From assembly GCA_934096125.1 (NCBI GenBank), contig CAKOLB010000006.1, forward strand, positions 778 through 64,777: a stretch of 64,000 nt of DNA, given 5' to 3'. Of the stretch, positions 8,356-58,830 are shown piece by piece; the stretch's first letter is position 1, and the number at the start of each line of letters is the position of its first letter. Both the position numbers and the translations under genes were made by a program. The notes under the pieces were generated by a model. It was not told the DNA's origin. It saw only the letters and a program-made list of their open reading frames with translations, and made no database searches. Origin of the DNA: an uncultured Bacilli bacterium (GTDB lineage Bacteria > Bacillota_I > Bacilli_A > RF39 > UBA660).

Positions 8356-8862
8356 TTATGCCATTTTCTTAGACATAACTAAACTCATTCGAGCCATATC
8401 TTCATTTTTTCTTTTTAAAACTAAGGCAGCATCCTTTTCCCCAAGCAACTCTTTAATCATAAACTCTGGTAAATGATAAAGACCTTCAACCGAAAATATT
8501 CCTTGACATACCAGTAAATTACGGACCTTTGTATCAACATATATTCCCTGGAAATCCGCTAAAGCCTCAGCATATTTATTAAACTTTTCTTTAGTATCAA
8601 TACCATACTTTTTTAATGAAAACACATAAGACTTCATCACATCTATTAAACTATCAGCATACATGACAGACACTTCATCACTACCAGGAAACTTATCATC
8701 ACAAGCTTTAACAACCGTAGTCAAAAAGTCACTTGGAAGTATTTCTCCAAGCACTTCATAATAACCTCGGTCTTGAAAAGATATATCTGAACTATAAAAT
8801 ATAGCATTTACAAAACTCATTCGCTCTCCCCTCATATTTTTATTCTCCATTTCCTCCTTCAA
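8356..8862 (-). CDS. hypothetical protein
   Basis: ORF only; no family recognised. The likely start is the internal ATG of MSFVNAIFY, about 8820, which has an AGGGGAG SD. Confidence 0.3.
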   Translation of the reverse strand: MKEEMENKNMRGERMSFVNAIFYSSDISFQDRGYYEVLGEILPSDFLTTVVKACDDKFPGSDEVSVMYADSLIDVMKSYVFSLKKYGIDTKEKFNKYAEALADFQGIYVDTKVRNLLVCQGIFSVEGLYHLPEFMIKELLGEKDAALVLKRKNEDMARMSLVMSKKMA

Positions 8863-8937: not shown

Positions 8938-10695
8938 TTATTTTTTATTATTTATTTTTTCATTCACCATCAAAACAAACTCTTCTAAAGAAAGGCAAGT
9001 AACATCTTTACTTCCAAAGCATCTAAAACTAACGCTTCTACTTTCCTTTTCTTTATCCCCTAAAACTAAAGTAAGTGGCACTTTACTAATTTGAGCTTCT
9101 CTCATTTTATAAGATAATTTTTCATCTCTATCATCTAGTTTCACTCTAAAGTTTTCTTTTTCTAGTGCCTTTTTAACTTCTTTAGCATACTCCAAATGAT
9201 ATTCATTTTTAACAGGAATTATATCTATCTGCATCGGAGCAAGCCAAAGCGGTAACACACCTTTAGTTTCTTCAAGTAAAAATGCTATAAATCTATCTAG
9301 TGAACCCAAAATTGCTCTATGAATAACCACTGGAGTTTCTTTATTACCATCTTTATTAATATAATTAAGTTCAAACCGGCGAGGAAGCAAAAAGTCTAAT
9401 TGAATAGTTGGAATAGCTACTTCATTACCTACCGCAGGTTTAATCAAAATATCTAACTTTGGTCCATAAAAGGCTGCTTCACCTTCAACTTCCACAAAAT
9501 TAACATTTAACTCTTGTAAAACTTTTCGAAGAGCATCTTCCGCCATTTCCCACATCGCATCATCATCAAAATATTTCTCTTTATCATTTTTATCTCTTAA
9601 TGAAAGTCTAAACTTATTTTTAGTAATATCGATATTAAAGTCTTTATAAACTTCAATTGTTAAATCTAACACATTTTTAAACTCTTCTGCAATTTGTTCT
9701 GGTGTGCAAAATATATGCGAATCATTTTGAGTAAATGCTCTAGCCCGCTCTATACCTTTAACTGACCCAGCTGACTCATAACGAAAGTCATTAGCAATTT
9801 CAGCAATTCTCACCGGTAAATCTTTATATGAATGCAAGAAGTTTTTATAAATAACCATATGATGGGGACAATTCATTGGCCGAAGCACATAAGCCTCATT
9901 ATCAAGTTCCATCGCTGGAAACATATCATCTTTATAGTGATCCCAGTGCCCACTTGTTTTATATAGATTAACACTACCAAGATCAGGTGTATGAACATGT
10001 TTATATCCATGTGAAACTTCTTTTTCTGTCATATAATTTTGAATGATACGCCACAAAGTATAACCATTTGGAAGCCAAATTGGAAGCCCTCTACCAACTA
10101 AATCAGAAAGCATAAATATTTTTAAATCTTTCGCAATCTTTCGATGGTCTCTTTCTTTTGCTTCTTCTAATTCTTGTAAATAGTTTTGCAAATCTTCTTC
10201 AGTTTCAAAGCATACCCCATATATTCTTTGAAGCATTTGATTATTTGCATCATTTTTCCAATAAGCTCCACTTACTTTAAGTAGTTTAAAATGTTTTAAA
10301 AGCTTCACAGTTTCAAGATGAGGTCCTCTACATAAATCCGTAAAATCTCCTTGAGTATAAATACTTATAACACTACCATCCCCCAGATTATTAATTAAAT
10401 CTAGCTTATATGGGTCATTTTTAAACATTTCTAACGCTTCATCTTTTGTTATTTCATGCCTAACAATTCTCTTACCATCCTTAGCTATTTTCTTCATCTC
10501 TTTTTCCAGTTTTGGTAAATCTTCTTCGCTCAAAGTAATACTACCAAGGTCGATATCATAGTAAAAACCATCTTCAACCACTGGACCTACCCAAAACTTA
10601 GCATCTGGATACAAATGCTTAACCGCTTGAGCTAGCAAATGCGCACACGAATGATTCATTACATTCAAACTTTCATTTTCTTTAATATTTATCAT
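8938..10695 (-). CDS. thrS: threonyl-tRNA synthetase (short form lacking the N-terminal TGS domain)
   Basis: Second additional domain (HSCAHLL), class II core and anticodon-binding domain. At 585 aa it is shorter than the roughly 640 aa typical of ThrS. Confidence 0.95.
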   Translation of the reverse strand: MINIKENESLNVMNHSCAHLLAQAVKHLYPDAKFWVGPVVEDGFYYDIDLGSITLSEEDLPKLEKEMKKIAKDGKRIVRHEITKDEALEMFKNDPYKLDLINNLGDGSVISIYTQGDFTDLCRGPHLETVKLLKHFKLLKVSGAYWKNDANNQMLQRIYGVCFETEEDLQNYLQELEEAKERDHRKIAKDLKIFMLSDLVGRGLPIWLPNGYTLWRIIQNYMTEKEVSHGYKHVHTPDLGSVNLYKTSGHWDHYKDDMFPAMELDNEAYVLRPMNCPHHMVIYKNFLHSYKDLPVRIAEIANDFRYESAGSVKGIERARAFTQNDSHIFCTPEQIAEEFKNVLDLTIEVYKDFNIDITKNKFRLSLRDKNDKEKYFDDDAMWEMAEDALRKVLQELNVNFVEVEGEAAFYGPKLDILIKPAVGNEVAIPTIQLDFLLPRRFELNYINKDGNKETPVVIHRAILGSLDRFIAFLLEETKGVLPLWLAPMQIDIIPVKNEYHLEYAKEVKKALEKENFRVKLDDRDEKLSYKMREAQISKVPLTLVLGDKEKESRSVSFRCFGSKDVTCLSLEEFVLMVNEKINNKK

Positions 10696-10960
10696 TTTTC
10701 TCTCCTCCTAAACACAAAAAAAGAATGTTACCAAGGAGTCAAACTTATGACGGTACCATCCTTTTATTTTTCTTCATTTTGATAACGGCCAAAACCGGAG
10801 TCTATTAAACTCGAAGCATCCGTAAAGTAGTAACCCTTAGCCTTCCTTGCTAGCTTTCCACCACCGCTAACTCTCTAGAAATTCCAATCTAAAAGTCTTG
10901 TCTTTCGTCAAACGCTCAACACCTAAAATATAGCACATTTCCACTTATCTATCAAGTAGC
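10696..10960 (-). promoter_or_regulatory. putative T-box riboswitch leader of thrS
   Basis: The minus-strand leader contains AAAAGGATGGTACCGTCA, one mismatch from the T-box consensus AANNNGGGTGGTACCGCG. It is followed by a U-run (CATTCTTTTTTT) and then the thrS SD. The AGAGAG stem-I element lies further upstream. Confidence 0.5.
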
Positions 10961-10962
10961 AA

Positions 10963-11796
10963 TTAAGCAAAATATGCTAAAATATCTTGCCAAAGCACTT
11001 CATGATTTAAATCAAAAAGCACTTTATGTCCAGCATTATAATCTTTACTTGTAACATTTGCTCCCTTTTGCCTTAAATACTTTTCTAAATTTACTAGCGA
11101 GCCTTTTTCACTTAGCGTACTATCCAAAGAGCCATGAACTAAAAATATATTTTGCAATTCAAACTCAAGCTTTTTCACATTTGCTTCTAGTCTCACTATC
11201 TCATATATACTTTTATTTTTATAGTTGTAGTAGCAATTTGCATCACTTTTAAACTCATTTGTAGCAACACTACTTGAAAAAAGTACTGTCTTACTTCCAA
11301 AACCTAGTACACTTTGCATATAACTACTTTCCCCATTTTTTCCAAGTATTCCCAGCATAAACTTTAAAAGTTTAAGTGTTGCTATGGCACTTTCACTAAA
11401 AATCGGTGAAACCAAAACTGTTTTTACAGGCTTTATTTGCGGCAAAGCATTAAAACATACAAGCGCCCCTAAACTATCACCAAGAACATAAATATCTTTT
11501 CCCCCAAATCTATTTTTCGCATAATTATAAACAATAACTAAATCATCTATTAACTTTCCAGCATCACTAATAACCCCAAGTTCATTTTCTTTACTTATGC
11601 TTTTCCCATGTCCCCGCATATCATAAAGAAGAATATTAAAACCATTTTGATAAAAATAATTAGCCATATTATAATATCTTTCTTTATACTCATTTATCCC
11701 TGGCACAATAATTAAAGTTTTACTTGCCCCTATATTTTCCATAATACTTACAGATAAATAAAGTAAATCACAAGATTTTAAACTAACTTCAATCAT
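10963..11796 (-). CDS. alpha/beta-fold hydrolase (lysophospholipase/monoacylglycerol-lipase-like)
   Basis: Nucleophile elbow GDSLGA, YDMRGHGKS, and a C-terminal His in AGHKVLFDLNHE. It overlaps the upstream HerA-like gene by 4 nt. Confidence 0.7.
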   Translation of the reverse strand: MIEVSLKSCDLLYLSVSIMENIGASKTLIIVPGINEYKERYYNMANYFYQNGFNILLYDMRGHGKSISKENELGVISDAGKLIDDLVIVYNYAKNRFGGKDIYVLGDSLGALVCFNALPQIKPVKTVLVSPIFSESAIATLKLLKFMLGILGKNGESSYMQSVLGFGSKTVLFSSSVATNEFKSDANCYYNYKNKSIYEIVRLEANVKKLEFELQNIFLVHGSLDSTLSEKGSLVNLEKYLRQKGANVTSKDYNAGHKVLFDLNHEVLWQDILAYFA

Positions 11797-13532
11797 AACA
11801 TCTCCTCCTCATACCAAAGACTAGCAACATCTACACTAGCATTTTTTGGTGCCACCTTAGGCATCTCAAGTTTTATCAAAAGAGGCATCTTAAAACCTGT
11901 TCCAAAAGCATAACACACCCCTGCATTTAACTCTTTTATTTTCTCAATCACATTTAAAGACATATTTGTACTCATTTGTTTTATCTGTTCCAAATCCGCG
12001 GGATGAATAACCCGAAAAACCAAATAATTAGCACATTGACTTAACGCAGTCGATGAAAGCTCACTTGGCCTTTGTGTTATAAAAGTCATAAGACATCCAT
12101 ACTTTCTTCCCTCTTTGGTAATACGATTAAATATATTATAACCAATAACTTCCTCATCACTATCATTTTGAACATACCTATGGGCTTCTTCTAAAATTAT
12201 ATTAAAGGAAAAAGACCCATTATCTCTATTTTTAATCAGATAATTAAATATAAGCTTACTATATAGTTTAGTTAAAACTTTAGCAAATCTACTTTCTAAA
12301 TCACTTAAATCTATAATAGTTAAATTATTACAAACAAACATATCTTTCATAAACTTATCATAATCTATAAAATCATCATATTTAAATATATTATTTTTAG
12401 GACTATTAATAATTGCTTGCAATCTTGTTTTTAATATATTTACTTGTTTATAAGCTTCATCACTATTTAAAGTACCTTCACTTATAAGTGCAAACTCCAA
12501 AGCATAATACAAATCTTCTAAATCATATGCAAAATCTTTTATTACATCTATATTATCTATATTTATTATTTCGAAATTACTCAAAAAATTCATAACTTCA
12601 TATATAGCATTAATTTTTCCTTGCTCATCAATTAAAAGACACTGGCGAAGTGTTCTATCATACCCCGGCTGATGAATTATTGACTCCAAATTTAAGTCTT
12701 TCGTATTATAATGAGATAAAACCGCAATTACTTGGTCACGAGTACTACTAGATGATTTACCAGACGTTAAAATATCCATTATACACTTAGCTATTATATC
12801 ATTTTTGTACTCTTGCATCTTAGGACTTTTACTTTTAAAAATACTTACAAGTTTCAAAGTTTTATCAAGTACCGCTATCTGCTGAGCATTAGTAGCTCCA
12901 AGTAATATTGCTAAATCATCTGTTTCTAAAAAATAAGCTGGATATTTAAGAAACCTCTCTTCTGCATTTATAGATGAATATTTTTGAATAGTAAGTCCTT
13001 TTTCTTTTATCATATCAAAAGCATTTACATATTCTCCATAAGCATCAAATAAAACAAAATGAGCATTAAATGGCGTATTTATCCCTAAAAAAAGATTTTG
13101 AAGTATCCGTGTTAACCCACAAGACTTACCACTTCCTGTATTTCCTACAATAGCGTTATGAAATGAGAAAAAATCATTAAGTTTTACCAAAACATTAAAT
13201 TTTTCATAAAGATAAGATTTTCCCAAAACTAAAGAATTACCAGCCAAATTATTATCGCCAAGAATAAGAGCAAGTTCATCAGCATTAATGGGGCGAATAC
13301 TTGCATCAGATGATAAAGGCGCATTACCACCTGCATAAAATCTATTTTGCCAAATAAACCCCACCAAAAAACATTTTATTATCTTTTCACTAACAAGTGT
13401 AACTTCAGCTACCACTTTTTTATCATCTATAACAAAAACAATATACCCACCAAGCAAAGTTGCATCAACACTTTGCTTTTTATTTTCTAAGGTAATCTCT
13501 CTAGTCTGCACCTCTAATATTTTGCCAAACAT
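11793..13532 (-). CDS. HerA/DUF87-family (FtsK-HerA superfamily) ATPase
   Basis: N-terminal HAS-barrel-like region, Walker A GNTGSGKS, Walker B ILEEAHRY, and the C-terminal motif FITQRPSEL typical of HerA/DUF87. Confidence 0.75.
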   Translation of the reverse strand: MFGKILEVQTREITLENKKQSVDATLLGGYIVFVIDDKKVVAEVTLVSEKIIKCFLVGFIWQNRFYAGGNAPLSSDASIRPINADELALILGDNNLAGNSLVLGKSYLYEKFNVLVKLNDFFSFHNAIVGNTGSGKSCGLTRILQNLFLGINTPFNAHFVLFDAYGEYVNAFDMIKEKGLTIQKYSSINAEERFLKYPAYFLETDDLAILLGATNAQQIAVLDKTLKLVSIFKSKSPKMQEYKNDIIAKCIMDILTSGKSSSSTRDQVIAVLSHYNTKDLNLESIIHQPGYDRTLRQCLLIDEQGKINAIYEVMNFLSNFEIINIDNIDVIKDFAYDLEDLYYALEFALISEGTLNSDEAYKQVNILKTRLQAIINSPKNNIFKYDDFIDYDKFMKDMFVCNNLTIIDLSDLESRFAKVLTKLYSKLIFNYLIKNRDNGSFSFNIILEEAHRYVQNDSDEEVIGYNIFNRITKEGRKYGCLMTFITQRPSELSSTALSQCANYLVFRVIHPADLEQIKQMSTNMSLNVIEKIKELNAGVCYAFGTGFKMPLLIKLEMPKVAPKNASVDVASLWYEEEML

Positions 13533-13628
13533 CTTATCAACCTCTACTTTAAAATAAGTATATCACACTTTATTTAGGGTTGCACTTTCTTTTTTTTTTT
13601 GATATACTCATTTTGTTAGCAAAAAATT

Positions 13629-13704
13629 GTCTCCTTAGCTCAGTTGGTAGAGCAACTGACTCTTAATCAGTGGGTCTAGAGTTCGAATCTCTAAGGGGAC
13701 ACCA
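13629..13704 (+). tRNA. tRNA-Lys (anticodon CUU)
   Basis: Manual cloverleaf: acceptor GTCTCCT/AGGGGAC, D-arm GCTC..GAGC, anticodon stem ACTGA/TCAGT with loop CTCTTAA, T-arm GGGTC..GTTCGAATC, and an encoded CCA. Confidence 0.9.
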
Positions 13705-15030: not shown

Positions 15031-15264
15031 TTGAAAATAAAAGCCAATGACTACAAAGCCAATGAGGTAATAAAAATAATTAGAAAATGGAGTGGAAAAA
15101 CCCAAACTGAATTTGGCAAAGAAATAAATCGTACTAAAAACGCTATTCAATTTTATGAATACGGCCAAAGAAACTATGATTTTGAACTTCTTTTAGAAAA
15201 TGCTAAAAAAGAAAATTTTATTATCACTATCGAAAAAATAATAACTAAAAATTGGAAGTTGTAA
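15031..15264 (+). CDS. XRE-family HTH transcriptional regulator (TTG start)
   Basis: HTH_3-like core SGKTQTEFGKEINRTKNAIQFYEYGQR. It lies directly upstream of the Y-family polymerase operon. Confidence 0.5.
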   Translation: MKIKANDYKANEVIKIIRKWSGKTQTEFGKEINRTKNAIQFYEYGQRNYDFELLLENAKKENFIITIEKIITKNWKL

Positions 15265-15309
15265 ATTTCTATATACTACCTTATAATATTTTATAGAAAC
15301 AAAGGTTCG

Positions 15310-16569
15310 GTGATAAAAATGAATGAAACAAGAAACATTTTATGTATTGATTTAAAAAGTTTTTTTGCCTCATGCGAATGTATCGAGCGCGGACTAGATC
15401 CTTTTACCTATCCTCTTGTTGTTGCTAATAAAAAACAAGGAAATGGTGCTATTACTCTAGCTATAACTCCGGCCTTAAAAAAACTAGGAATTGCATCAAG
15501 AACTAGATTATTTGACATTCCAAGTCATATAAAATATGACATTGTTCCTCCGAGAATGAAGTTATATATCCAAAAAAGTAAAGAAGTTGTCGGTATCTAT
15601 CTAGACTTTGTTGCTCCAGAGGACTTACACATCTACTCGATCGATGAATGTTTCCTAGATGTCACAGACTACCTAAAACTCTATAAAAAAAACGACTATG
15701 AACTAGCAGAAACTATTTTAAAAACTATAACTAAGAAAACTGGTCTTACCGCTACCTGCGGAATTGGTCCCAACCTGCTTCTTGCTAAAGTTGCCATGGA
15801 TGTTGAAGCGAAAAAATATAAAAATGGTATTGCTAAATGGACTTATGCAGATGTTTCCACTAAACTTTGGAGCATAACACCTCTTTCTAAAATGTGGGGA
15901 ATAGGCAAAAGAATGGAAAAAAAACTAAATTATTTAAATATTTATACCATTGGCGACCTAGCAAAATATGACGTTAATAAATTAAAAGATAAATTTGGAG
16001 TAATGGGAGAAGAGCTTTGGCGGCATGCTAACGGTCAAGATGAAAGTCGTATTTCCGATTTTAAAATAACATGCAAAGAAGCATCTTTCAGCCACTCCCA
16101 AGTTCTATTTAAAGATTATAATGAAACAAATATTAAACTAATCATTAAAGAAATGGTTGAAGTACTCACATCTAGACTTCGAAAACATAACAAAGAATGT
16201 ATGAAAATTGGCTTTGGAATTAGCTATTCTAAAAGTATCGGCGGTGGCTTTTATCATCAACTAAAACTTGATAGACCTACGGATGACACCACAGAAATCA
16301 CTGATATGTGTCTTCTTATCTTTGATAAATTTTATGAATTTTTACCCATCCGTAAAGTAAGCATATCTTGTAATAACCTAATTACTAAAAAAGGTAAACA
16401 ACTAAGTTTGTTTGAAGAAGATAAAGACCAAAAAGCTAACAATATTGATACAACTATTGATGAAATAAAGGATAGGTTTGGGAAAAATAGCCTCTTAAAA
16501 GCATCTAATCTTCTTGATGACTCAACAGCTATCGAAAGAAACAAAAAAATAGGAGGCCATCATGAGTGA
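15310..16569 (+). CDS. Y-family DNA polymerase (UvrX/YqjW/UmuC-like)
   Basis: ILCIDLKSFFASCE and IDECFLDVT catalytic motifs. The frame opens with GTG at 15310; the ATG at 15319 (MNETRNILCID) is the likelier start. Confidence 0.85.
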   Translation: MIKMNETRNILCIDLKSFFASCECIERGLDPFTYPLVVANKKQGNGAITLAITPALKKLGIASRTRLFDIPSHIKYDIVPPRMKLYIQKSKEVVGIYLDFVAPEDLHIYSIDECFLDVTDYLKLYKKNDYELAETILKTITKKTGLTATCGIGPNLLLAKVAMDVEAKKYKNGIAKWTYADVSTKLWSITPLSKMWGIGKRMEKKLNYLNIYTIGDLAKYDVNKLKDKFGVMGEELWRHANGQDESRISDFKITCKEASFSHSQVLFKDYNETNIKLIIKEMVEVLTSRLRKHNKECMKIGFGISYSKSIGGGFYHQLKLDRPTDDTTEITDMCLLIFDKFYEFLPIRKVSISCNNLITKKGKQLSLFEEDKDQKANNIDTTIDEIKDRFGKNSLLKASNLLDDSTAIERNKKIGGHHE

Positions 16570-16876
16570 TAGAAAAATGATCAAGTGGCTTCCCTTTAAC
16601 TCCGTTATCACTGGCAAATCAGTTTTATATGATAATTTAAAAGCTAAAGCTAAAATTCCCAAACCAAAAATAAGTGAAGACGAAGAAAAAATCATTGAAA
16701 ACACCTTAATAGATGCCTACTATAGTCAGTATACTGTTAAAATAACCTATTACTTAAATGGATACCTTCAAGATACTATTACCAAAATTAAAAAAATAGA
16801 TAAATTTCAAAAACTTATCTATTTAAATAACACTATTATCTATTTTCATCAAATAATAACTATGAAACCGGTGTAA
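16562..16876 (+). CDS. YolD-like protein (UmuD functional analogue)
   Basis: About 100 aa, overlapping the polymerase stop by 8 nt. MIKWLPFNSV... is typical of the YolD-like family that pairs with uvrX/yqjW. Confidence 0.6.
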   Translation: MSDRKMIKWLPFNSVITGKSVLYDNLKAKAKIPKPKISEDEEKIIENTLIDAYYSQYTVKITYYLNGYLQDTITKIKKIDKFQKLIYLNNTIIYFHQIITMKPV

Positions 16877-56423: not shown

Positions 56424-56864
56424 CTAAAACCTATCATCAAAATTTTCCATTTCATCAAGTTGTTCTTCCACTAAATTTCTAAACTTTCTTTTATATACAG
56501 CTACTTTTCTACGCAAACTTTCAGCTTCTGACTCTATTCTCTCGGCCTTAGTAAGAGCATTATTTATAACTTTAGTAGCATTTCTTTTCGCATCTTCAAG
56601 TATTACTTTTGATTCATCATAAGCAGCCTTTTTTATATTACTCGTGGACTCTTCTGCTACCAAAATAGCTCTATTCAAAGTTGCTTCTATATCTTTATAA
56701 TGCTTTAACTCATCTTTTAAATTATTAACTATCTCACAACTTTTCTTAAGTTTATTAAGCATACTTTCATATTCTTTAGTTACTTCCTTAACAAACTCAT
56801 TAACCTCTTCTTTTTTATAGCCTTGAATACTTGTACTAAATTTATTTACCATAAGGCTCACCAC
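56424..56864 (-). CDS. divIVA: DivIVA-domain cell division protein
   Basis: KFSTSIQGYKKEEVNEFV matches the DivIVA N-terminus; coiled-coil rest. Confidence 0.75.
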   Translation of the reverse strand: MVSLMVNKFSTSIQGYKKEEVNEFVKEVTKEYESMLNKLKKSCEIVNNLKDELKHYKDIEATLNRAILVAEESTSNIKKAAYDESKVILEDAKRNATKVINNALTKAERIESEAESLRRKVAVYKRKFRNLVEEQLDEMENFDDRF

Positions 56865-56869
56865 CTATA

Positions 56870-57283
56870 TTACCAGTCTAATTCTTCATCGGAATTATTT
56901 TTATTACTTTTATCACTCTCATCACTTATCTTCCCTTGAACACTTACATTTTTGGGAGCGACCAAATAAATACCTACTCCAATTTTTTGCATAGAACCAC
57001 CAATAGCATATATGACGCCACTTAAAAAGTCAATAATTCTTTTTGCTTGGTCAGATGTAACTCTTTTTAAATTAACAACAACACTATTTCTATTTTTTAA
57101 ATGGTCTGCAATTTGTTGTGATTCCGAATAAGCCCTAGGCTCTAGCAATATCATCTTATTTCCTGTTTTATCAGCCTCTTTAACCGCTTCTTCTTCAGAT
57201 ATATTATAGTACCCATCTTCTGTACCATTTAAATTATCATCATCACCATCATATTTAAAGACATTTTTTAAGTTAAAAGCCAT
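56870..57283 (-). CDS. sepF: cell division protein SepF
   Basis: C-terminal SepF domain (ILLEPRAYSESQQIADHLKNRNSVVVNL...). Upstream of divIVA, as in the ylm cluster. Confidence 0.8.
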   Translation of the reverse strand: MAFNLKNVFKYDGDDDNLNGTEDGYYNISEEEAVKEADKTGNKMILLEPRAYSESQQIADHLKNRNSVVVNLKRVTSDQAKRIIDFLSGVIYAIGGSMQKIGVGIYLVAPKNVSVQGKISDESDKSNKNNSDEELDW

Positions 57284-57387
57284 TTGTGTTTCCTCCTAGT
57301 CTACTTTTTAATTTTATCAAACTTTTATTTTTTTTACAAGCCCTTTTAATTTACATCTATTATAAAAAGATATGCTTTACTCGCATA

Positions 57388-58761
57388 TCAAAACTCTATT
57401 TTTCTCGCTATATAATCCCTAACTTCATCTATTTTCATAGTCACTTGCTCCATAGTATCTCTATCTCTTACAGTAACTATATTATTTTCAAGAGTATTAT
57501 CATCAATCGTTATAGAAAAAGGTACTCCAATTGCATCACTTCTTCTATATCTTTTTCCAATAGAACCTGACTCATCATAAATACATTCAAAATACTTACA
57601 TAAATCTCCATATATATCATTAGCTTTATTTCCATGAACTTTTTTAATAAGCGGTAAAATACTTACCTTATATGGTGCAAGTGCTGGATGAATTTTTAAA
57701 ACAATTCTTTCACTATCTCCAGCCATTTCTTTCGTATAAGCATCTGTCAAAACTGCCAAGAATAGTCTATCAAGCCCAACAGATGGCTCAATAACATATG
57801 GCAAATATTTTTCTCCAGTCTCAGCATCAAGGTATCTTAAATCAGCCCCAGAATGCTCCATATGCACACCTAAATCATAATCAGTTCTATCGGCTATACC
57901 CCAAAGTTCACCCCAGCCCATTGGATACTTATATTCAATATCCGTCGTAGCTTTACTATAAAACACTAACTCTTCTTTCAAGTGGTCTCTAAGTCTTAAA
58001 TTTTCTTCTTTTAATCCAATACTTTTTAAAAAGTCAAAACAAAAACTCTTCCAATATCCAAACCACTCTAAATCAGTATTTGGTTTACAAAAAAATTCCA
58101 GTTCCATTTGTTCAAACTCTCTAGTTCTAAAAATAAAGTTCCCTGGTGTAATTTCATTTCGAAAAGCCTTACCAGTTTGAGCAATTCCAAAAGGAAGCTT
58201 AAGCCTCATACTTCTTTCCACATTTTTAAAGTTCACAAATATCCCTTGCGCTGTTTCTCCCCTTAAATAAACAGTACTTTTACTATCATTTGTAACCCCA
58301 ACTTTAGTTTCAAAAAGCAAATTAAACTTTCTAATTGGTGTAAAATCACTCTTACCACACTTTGGACACTTTATTTTATTATCAGCGATAAACTTCTCAA
58401 GTGCTTCATTTTCCCAACCATCACCTGTAACCTCACCATGAGTATATTCTTCCACTAACTTATCAGCTCTATGTCTACTCTTACATCCCCGGCAATCAAT
58501 AAGGGGATCTGCAAAAGATGCCACATGCCCAGATGCCACCCATACATTTGGATTCATAAGTATCGCCGCATCCACTCCAACATTATAAGGATTTTCTTGA
58601 ATAAACTTTTTCTTCCAAGACTTTCGTAAATTTTCCTTTATATTTGTTCCAACTGGACCATAATCCCACGAATTAGAAAGCCCCCCATAAATTTCACTTC
58701 CTTGAAATATAATTCCATATTGCTTAGAATAGTTTACAAGTTCTTCCATTGAATTTAACAT
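57388..58761 (-). CDS. glyQS: glycyl-tRNA synthetase (alpha2 single-chain type)
   Basis: Class II motifs and about 460 aa. Start reset to the MLNSMEEL ATG, 9 nt after a GGAAG SD. Confidence 0.9.
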   Translation of the reverse strand: MLNSMEELVNYSKQYGIIFQGSEIYGGLSNSWDYGPVGTNIKENLRKSWKKKFIQENPYNVGVDAAILMNPNVWVASGHVASFADPLIDCRGCKSRHRADKLVEEYTHGEVTGDGWENEALEKFIADNKIKCPKCGKSDFTPIRKFNLLFETKVGVTNDSKSTVYLRGETAQGIFVNFKNVERSMRLKLPFGIAQTGKAFRNEITPGNFIFRTREFEQMELEFFCKPNTDLEWFGYWKSFCFDFLKSIGLKEENLRLRDHLKEELVFYSKATTDIEYKYPMGWGELWGIADRTDYDLGVHMEHSGADLRYLDAETGEKYLPYVIEPSVGLDRLFLAVLTDAYTKEMAGDSERIVLKIHPALAPYKVSILPLIKKVHGNKANDIYGDLCKYFECIYDESGSIGKRYRRSDAIGVPFSITIDDNTLENNIVTVRDRDTMEQVTMKIDEVRDYIARKIEF

Positions 58762-58830
58762 ATCAATCACTTCCTTAGTAGCCTCATTATAACGAAAAAA
58801 AAACAAAGAAACAAGCCTTTGCGAGACATT

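Follow-up and report, generated by a model that had tools for sequence, protein, structure and literature searches.

Present work on bacterial HerA ATPases mostly concerns their part in anti-phage defense, where they serve as scaffolds and activators of SIR2, DUF4297 and other effectors. For the SIR2-HerA system (Nezha), represented by Staphylococcus aureus SaSir2-HerA (8yhx, 8yho) and by the Escherichia coli and Paenibacillus systems, the solved S. aureus complex places the SIR2 effector on the N-terminal β-barrel of HerA (PMC11514289, in which the SaHerA structure 8yhx is described). DUF4297-HerA (9c1m, 8ziq) is a second such system, whereas the HerA-NurA machinery of archaea and bacteria, which resects DNA ends (Sulfolobus 4d2i, Thermococcus 9x1m) has a chromosomal cellular function and not a defensive one. 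Here, we analyze a 64,000-nucleotide stretch of DNA from an uncultured Bacilli bacterium (contig CAKOLB010000006.1; hereafter “the window”), in which the gene for a HerA-family ATPase overlaps that of an α/β hydrolase and lies beside a divergent tRNA-Lys gene. A first-pass annotation of the sequence had taken the two genes for an acquired, defense-like module. The evidence assembled below favors, with moderate confidence, a HerA-family ring ATPase that is inherited vertically and has a cellular role throughout the lineage, joined in the sub-lineage of the window by a non-obligatory, lipase-like accessory enzyme.

Relationship to Described HerA Systems

The full HerA architecture claimed in the first-pass annotation is confirmed by profile searches, motifs and the predicted fold. 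Pfam PF01935 (DUF87/HerA central domain) matches with 61.3 bits against a cut-off of 23.2, and the PADLOC HerA model PDLC04102 reaches 328 bits over residues 97–577 (PADLOC models carry no curated cut-off). The Walker A motif is GNTGSGKS (residues 130–137, nt 13145–13122) and the Walker B motif IILEE-AHRY (residues 445–453, nt 12200–12174, with IILEE at 445–449); an Arg/Lys cluster, KEGRKYG (residues 473–479), and the FITQRPSEL motif (residues 484–492) follow. In the orthologue alignment, K136 is invariant and E448 is at least 90% conserved, and E449 is present in the window protein. The second acidic residue of Walker B, a glutamate, has been lost in three divergent members of the family (P0164, P0170, P0178). 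The AlphaFold2 (AF2) model, with a predicted local distance difference test score (pLDDT) of 86, comprises an all-beta N-terminal barrel (residue 1 to about 100, with seven strands in residues 2–81), a RecA-like core and a helical insertion at about residues 204–400. In Foldseek, solved HerA structures align with the entire model at template modeling (TM) scores of 0.6–0.75. The profile match above cut-off, the Walker A/B motifs with the Arg/Lys cluster, and the HAS-type barrel joined to a RecA-like core with its helical insertion together place the protein in the HerA family. Its motifs predict a catalytically intact enzyme, which by homology would assemble into a ring and, as a member of the HerA/FtsK superfamily, would act on nucleic acid.

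By fold and by sequence, SIR2-HerA is the nearest described system. The top Foldseek match is 8yhx (TM 0.75, E 1e-30), the order of domains is the same (β-barrel, RecA core, helical bundle) and in both cases the partner gene is tightly coupled and overlapping. In sequence, the window HerA is 32–34% identical over residues ~48–577 to SIR2-associated HerAs from Listeria and Enterococcus plasmids and from metagenomes. The partner of SIR2-HerA, however, is a SIR2 NADase encoded upstream, whereas that of the window HerA is an α/β hydrolase encoded downstream. Furthermore, the NCBIfam antiphage-HerA models fall far below their cut-offs on the window protein (NF042944, 150 bits against 850; NF042943, 145 bits against 800), and its context is vertical and housekeeping, in contrast to the plasmid, insertion sequence (IS), restriction-modification or defense-island settings of the SIR2-HerA relatives. 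DUF4297-HerA supplies the top PDB sequence match and a full-length fold match; it differs in the same respects, and no DUF4297 or Cap4-like nuclease gene lies near the window locus. HerA-NurA shares the family and the fold but is more distant in sequence than the defense HerAs, and no NurA, Mre11 or Rad50 gene is found at the window locus or recurs among the 80 loci analyzed below. The FtsK/SpoIIIE/SftA translocases belong to the common FtsK-HerA P-loop superfamily, as a weak Pfam FtsK_SpoIIIE match reflects, but by sequence the window HerA is not an FtsK-family protein, and neither a gamma domain nor a membrane anchor was detected in it.

Could the window pair nevertheless be a defense system? 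On this reading, which we regard as improbable, the two genes encode a HerA-driven anti-phage system of the abortive-infection kind, fixed in the chromosome of the lineage: HerA would sense phage DNA or form a ring and activate a docked hydrolase, and this lipase-fold effector would degrade membrane lipids or another ester-linked metabolite. The kinship of the ATPase speaks for it. HerA is most like the SIR2-HerA and DUF4297-HerA ATPases, and its nearest outgroups (30–34% identity) are SIR2-HerA pairs in defense or mobile contexts. Outside the orthologues, the closest metagenomic relative is P0177 (34% identical), the HerA of an overlapping SIR2_2-HerA pair beside an Eco57I-type methylase and a DUF3427 helicase, and the nearest plasmid relatives (32–33%) are SIR2-HerA pairs of Listeria and Enterococcus flanked by recombinases or IS elements; plasmid relatives were considered and set aside, being SIR2-HerA pairs of at most 33% identity. 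The N-terminal barrel, the region that binds SIR2 in the solved complexes (PMC11514289), is also where the window HerA departs from the defense HerAs, as expected after a swap of partners. Similarity to them is weakest in the first ~100 residues, with PADLOC and nearest-relative matches starting at about residue 97, and this same region is well conserved within the family of the window HerA itself. The antiphage-HerA scores count against a defense system. By sequence and by fold, the family is a sister group of the defense HerAs but lies outside their membership: the antiphage models score below cut-off, there is no SIR2 or DUF4297 partner, the context is not an island and the distribution is not patchy. 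A phage origin was also considered and rejected, as a search of a phage collection gave merely terminase- or helicase-level noise.

Distribution and Inheritance of the HerA Family

A word-indexed search returned thousands of HerA relatives, many of them ~59% identical, on long gut-metagenome contigs. An exhaustive search of 50%-identity representatives yielded about a dozen full-length HerA clusters that align from residue 1, whereas longer and more distant proteins align only from about residue 97. With one genome taken per GTDB species, at least 591 loci encode a HerA relative, almost all in metagenome-assembled genomes (MAGs) of uncultured Bacilli, “Tenericutes” or Firmicutes. For the best 80 of these species loci, open reading frames (ORFs) were called, neighbors were clustered and a neighbor-joining tree of HerA was built; individual loci and proteins are designated below by L and P numbers.

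Gene context tracks phylogeny in this set, each context forming its own clade in the tree. In one clade, HerA is embedded in the signal recognition particle (SRP) operon (ftsY, a small membrane protein gene (c6), ylxM, HerA, ffh, rpsP), with gaps of 3–18 nt in most of its loci. A second clade lies immediately upstream of sepF-divIVA(-ileS), a third follows yqeG-yqeH, a fourth lies near tcdA/rarA/xerD, and a fifth, which includes the sub-lineage of the window, near prsA/recX. Where no neighbor recurs, the genes directly downstream of HerA are unrelated housekeeping ones, encoding LepB signal peptidase, LDH, TatD, PFOR, TrpS, YebC and membrane proteins. With the neighbors clustered and read, none but housekeeping genes recurred, and no SIR2 or DUF4297 gene was found either at the window locus or across the 80 loci. 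A TatD-family hydrolase gene follows HerA in two loci (L086 7905–8660 and L090 3628–4374), with a gap of 2 nt in one and 77 nt in the other, and TatD is the sole nuclease-like neighbor of the family in the loci read.

HerA diverges at about the rate of the core genes around it. Mean within-clade identity is 63% for HerA against 73% for SepF, 70% for FtsY, 57% for DivIVA and 51% for YlxM. The divergence of HerA and that of its neighbors are mostly positively correlated, with Pearson coefficients of 0.39–0.71 and Spearman coefficients of 0.36–0.60 for SepF, DivIVA, YlxM and FtsY, and of about 0 for YqeG/YqeH. This rate and the agreement of context with phylogeny speak against a defense system, as does the fact that the orthologous HerAs stand alone, inside essential-gene operons, in 78 of the 80 loci.

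The neighborhoods bear on one further proposal, which makes the HerA-like protein an ATPase of secretion or conjugation (VirB4-, VirD4- or TraG-like), or else a motor for competence or pili, with the hydrolase as its secreted or cell-envelope-modifying cargo. Weak Pfam matches to FtsK_SpoIIIE and TrwB_AAD_bind and, in about six loci, pilin-like genes only a few genes away from HerA would fit such a motor. The fold search, however, puts the protein squarely among HerA proteins, the hydrolase sequence has no apparent signal peptide, and type IV secretion system, relaxase and pilus-assembly genes neither occur at the window locus nor recur in the 80 loci, which makes the proposal far-fetched.

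C-terminal tails of 100–430 residues, rich in Ser, Asn and Pro and apparently disordered, are found on some orthologues, mostly in the SRP clade (L073, L075, L076, L060, L067, L088; P0165, P0166, P0178). These longer proteins (P0165, 829 residues; P0166, 940; P0178, 943; up to ~1010 in L073) were examined as possible “Rosetta stone” domain fusions and set aside, as they add low-complexity tails only and no Pfam domain. Two MAGs encode two HerA paralogues each from different context clades, one of sepF or yqeG type and one of SRP-operon type (L064/L075 in SIG199; L055/L082 in CGS3Y1-bin4). Unless the bins are mixed, this suggests that the family contains at least two ancient paralogous lines.

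In the window, the gene order is dnaB, dnaI, a 305-aa ORF, a YolD/Y-family polymerase/HTH cassette, a 102-aa ORF, an SH3 protein gene, tRNA-Lys, HerA, the hydrolase, thrS, a 168-aa ORF, infC, rpmI, rplT(+Rho_N) and pnp. The locus is a classical Firmicutes core block, in a low-GC spore former that carries GerA/B/C, SpoIIP and YqfD. It is syntenic in relatives, where HerA is 55–59% and the hydrolase 34–44% identical. All 23 conspecific metagenomic contigs that were read (contigs encoding an identical ThrS) have the same HerA-hydrolase arrangement, and this lack of presence/absence variation is a further point against a defense system. No defense neighbor was found in a PADLOC scan of 10 neighboring proteins, and no PADLOC model matches the hydrolase. 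These results do not support the earlier proposal of a defense-like acquired module.

The same proposal had cast the tRNA-Lys gene as a hotspot for acquired DNA. Integrases that target tRNA genes insert at their 3′ end, whereas the HerA pair is found 5′ of the tRNA-Lys gene. No att-like direct repeats were found at the tRNA/HerA locus. The GC content shows no anomaly (0.27–0.33 across the pair, 0.26–0.36 across the 18 kb scanned). An integrated island at tRNA-Lys was considered and rejected on this flat GC profile together with the lack of att-like repeats and of an integrase. Moreover, the divergent tRNA-Lys is kept beside HerA in the window, L008 and L001, and beside a lone hydrolase gene in L006. 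Because of this conservation, the tRNA-Lys is ancestral to the locus rather than a target of integration.

The Hydrolase and Its Pairing with HerA

The partner had been annotated as a lipase- or lysophospholipase-like serine hydrolase, and it proves to be one. Pfam PF12146 (Hydrolase_4) matches with 90.3 bits against a cut-off of 27, over profile positions 5–238 of 239. The serine of GDSLG, Ser108 (nt 11475–11473), belongs to a triad with Asp225 (nt 11124–11122) and His257 (nt 11028–11026) that is invariant in 15 homologues, down to 22% identity, and the AF2 model (pLDDT 88) has a monoacylglycerol lipase-like fold, with Foldseek TM scores of ~0.8 to the human and Mycobacterium tuberculosis enzymes. 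The NCBIfam lysophospholipase L2 model scores 33 bits against a cut-off of 362. Because the triad is invariant, the hydrolase looks enzymatically active, and its substrate would be an ester or a lipid. The likeness to the monoacylglycerol lipases and lysophospholipases of the Hydrolase_4 family (human MGLL, M. tuberculosis Rv0183, E. coli PldB) takes in the full-length Pfam match, the fold with its cap-region helices, the Ser-Asp-His triad and the GxSxG motif. Identity to them, however, is only 14–21%, and nearly all members of the window hydrolase family, a narrow one of 38 detectable 90%-identity clusters, are encoded in an operon behind a HerA gene.

The stop/start overlap and the ORF coordinates reported by the first-pass annotation are exact in the raw sequence. 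The HerA stop codon TGA (11795–11793) shares bases with the hydrolase ATG (11796–11794) in an ATGA (11796–11793), and a strong GAGGAGGAG Shine-Dalgarno sequence (11810–11802) is contained in the 3′ end of the HerA gene, in its final codons. Orthologues of the hydrolase, down to 33% identity, likewise lie directly downstream of a HerA orthologue, with stop and start overlapping by 4–11 nt or at most ~9 nt apart. The pair is found in the thrS context in the window and in L005, L008, L009/10, L011, L012 and L093, beside the gene of a class-I aminoacyl-tRNA synthetase, judged leuS/valS-like from its Pfam families, in L091, and in a Sel1/SDF/aldolase context in L095. Its movement as a unit through three downstream contexts speaks for a genuine operon and probably for a link in function between the two genes. 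Within this one sub-lineage, the pair is a conserved and, by its sequence, translationally coupled unit, and to that extent the two-gene module of the earlier annotation stands. It does not extend further, since the hydrolase is present in only two of the 80 HerA loci (L011, L012).

Each gene also occurs without the other. In L001–L004 (HerA ~59% identical), which are nested inside the hydrolase-bearing clade, the order is spoIVA, tRNA-Lys, HerA, ftsY, ylxM, with no hydrolase gene. Conversely, L006/7 and L104–108 have a lone hydrolase gene at the matching syntenic site (sepF, divIVA, p103, SH3, tRNA-Lys, hydrolase, thrS), from which HerA is cleanly absent. These lone hydrolases are the closest relatives of the window hydrolase (52–53% identical) and have their own ribosome-binding site and an intact triad. 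A metagenome scan for hydrolase relatives added two more HerA-less loci and distant generic hydrolases; among the more distant hydrolases, none of 78 adjoins HerA. The coupling is thus not obligatory, and either gene persists alone. The earlier annotation had itself named a conserved core-genome housekeeping operon of known function and a failure of co-conservation among the results that would tell against its module, and these have largely been obtained: the locus is a core one, and outside the sub-lineage the genes are not co-conserved.

These observations weigh in more than one direction. For a defense system, the conserved gene coupling, the travel of the pair as a unit and the narrowness of a hydrolase family found almost exclusively beside HerA are what would be expected. 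That a sub-clade has cleanly lost HerA and kept the hydrolase with its triad, and that HerA is kept without the hydrolase inside the same clade, are not. Alternatively, the two genes may be functionally unrelated. A housekeeping lipid or ester hydrolase would then simply have ended up tightly behind a conserved HerA gene, and the ATGA overlap would reflect no more than the compaction of operons in a genome that is rich in AT and dense in genes. The persistence of each gene without the other would suit this alternative, as would the separate ribosome-binding site and upstream region of the HerA-less hydrolase, the much faster evolution of the hydrolase (34–52% identity against 55–60% for HerA in the same genomes) and the tight packing of HerA orthologues elsewhere against many unrelated genes. 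We nevertheless consider it unlikely. The pair stays adjacent, with stop and start overlapping or nearly touching, despite differing downstream genes (thrS, a leuS/valS-like synthetase, Sel1/SDF), and the hydrolase orthologues are found at this position only. Because none of the 78 more distant hydrolases adjoins HerA, the association is specific to the family of the window hydrolase.

As the first-pass annotation had surmised, the pairing of HerA with a lipase-fold hydrolase is previously undescribed; a literature search found no published description of it. In the JCVI minimal cell, a “hydrolase of unknown substrate” adjoins ftsZ-sepF; the parallel is a verbal one and is not used as evidence.

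A Proposed Role for the Pair

In the reading preferred here, the pair is a chromosomally fixed, vertically inherited two-gene operon and not a mobile defense cassette. The primary job of HerA would most likely be a lineage-wide cellular one, because its orthologues, usually solo, lie inside the housekeeping operons of hundreds of gut Bacilli species. Judging from the HerA/FtsK superfamily, HerA would use ATP to translocate or remodel DNA or nucleoprotein, in a process tied to chromosome maintenance or the cell cycle. The hydrolase would have been recruited once, in the sub-lineage that includes the window organism, and its predicted co-transcription and translational coupling with HerA would make it probably a non-obligatory accessory partner. 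Physical contact between the two proteins may accompany this partnership.

A more specific version starts from the neighborhood of cell-division genes. In Bacillus subtilis, the soluble translocase SftA is recruited by SepF (PMC9320952), and the position of one HerA clade directly upstream of sepF-divIVA is suggestive of a division-linked translocase, a lead that comes from gene neighborhood only. A defense-type HerA, sister to SIR2-HerA, may have been co-opted by gut Bacilli as a core motor of the cell cycle or of chromosome maintenance. Such a motor would resemble SftA and FtsK as a soluble ring translocase and would be expressed together with the SRP operon or sepF-divIVA, and in the sub-lineage of the window it would have acquired a docked lipase-like subunit coupling the motor to membrane lipid remodeling. 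We think this scenario quite improbable.

Several points weigh against a vertically inherited cellular HerA with an accessory hydrolase. Among characterized proteins, HerA subunits from anti-phage systems are the closest in both sequence and fold; the PDB sequence matches (9c1m, the top one at E 3e-39, then 8xau, 8ziq, 8j4u and 8wiv) and the fold matches are all defense HerAs, and the nearest non-orthologous relatives, at 30–34% identity, sit in real SIR2-HerA defense or mobile contexts. Tight translational coupling with a hydrolase family found almost only beside HerA is the pattern expected of an effector-motor pair. The orthology of HerA across clades is not strict, because two MAGs carry two paralogues each. 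Its “core” status is judged from loci and contigs, not from presence/absence tables of complete genomes, and its housekeeping neighbors may simply reflect gene-dense genomes.

Locus Features and Neighboring Genes

The features of the locus are collected in Table 1. The divergent tRNA-Lys gene and the 11-T run in the intergenic space it shares with HerA are both where the first-pass annotation had put them, the run lying at 13590–13600 on the plus strand (an A run on the minus strand), inside the HerA upstream region. A promoter scan of that region on the minus strand called no convincing sigma-70 consensus. HerA starts with MFGKI, and this start is kept in orthologues.

Table 1. Features of the HerA-hydrolase locus, in window coordinates.
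Feature	Position	Strand	Basis and remarks
HerA-family (DUF87) P-loop ATPase gene	11793..13532	-	579 aa; ORF
α/β hydrolase gene (Hydrolase_4, monoacylglycerol-lipase-like)	10963..11796	-	277 aa; ORF
HerA/hydrolase junction	11793..11810	-	Predicted translational coupling; sequence read directly
HerA upstream region, common to divergent tRNA-Lys	13541..13628	-	AGAGG ribosome-binding site at 13545–13541
tRNA-Lys (anticodon CTT)	13629..13704	+	ARAGORN; Rfam tRNA, 70.5 bits; divergent from HerA
thrS regulatory region, directly 3′ of the hydrolase stop	10731..10955	-	Promoter/terminator scan and Rfam
thrS (threonyl-tRNA synthetase), downstream syntenic anchor	8938..10695	-	ORF; syntenic in L005, L008, L009, L093, L099–L103

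Between the hydrolase and the thrS regulatory region, the terminator scan found no terminator-like site. A promoter-like TTGATA-17-TATATT with a TG lies ahead of thrS at 10955–10927 (minus strand). The thrS leader that follows (10731–10920, minus strand) matches the Rfam T-box RF00230 from end to end with 46.7 bits (E 3e-9), against a gathering score of 93, so that there is no match at the gathering threshold. The T-box-like leader is probably real in spite of this, and it may be a divergent T-box of an AT-rich lineage.

Downstream of thrS, the thrS-infC gap (8356–8862, minus strand, in the window) is a variable cargo slot among relatives. It holds the 168-aa ORF in the window, with neither a Pfam nor a PADLOC match, AbiEii and a 279-aa ORF in L006/7 and L093, IS605 TnpB and AbiEii in L104/105, and Fic in L005. 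This slot looks more like a small defense or toxin-antitoxin hotspot than the HerA site does. The 168-aa ORF was also considered as the third operon gene of relatives and rejected, as it shows no homology to the gene of ~170 aa found after the hydrolase there. Further along, ribosomal protein L20 (6885–7421, minus strand) has a C-terminal extension that matches Rho_N (39 bits), for a total of 178 residues, and the fusion is also present in L093 and L099.

On the other side, 3′ of tRNA-Lys and on the strand opposite to its neighbors, lies a cassette of HTH (77 aa), Y-family polymerase (419 aa) and YolD (104 aa) genes (15031–16876, plus strand). In several conspecific contigs (L099, L101–103), a 39-aa remnant of an ISL3 transposase stands in place of the HTH gene. 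The glyS-sepF-divIVA genes (56445–58806, minus strand) lie ~43 kb from HerA in the window; in L008 and L104/105, they are found directly upstream of the SH3, tRNA-Lys and HerA site. This displacement implies a rearrangement in the lineage of the window.

Implications

The window locus shows a sister family of the defense HerAs that behaves as core genes do, in hundreds of gut Bacilli of which most are uncultured. Its members are usually solo and embedded in SRP, cell-division and ribosome-biogenesis operons, with a lipase-fold partner in one sub-lineage. Whatever the role of the pair, the locus is a warning against calling a defense system from a HerA match and a nearby tRNA gene. Should the pair be a defense system after all, a lipase-fold effector on a HerA scaffold would constitute a new effector class. 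If the cellular role is the true one, the family would illustrate an exchange of machinery between immunity and housekeeping, and a function would be given to a widespread gut-microbiota protein of unknown function.

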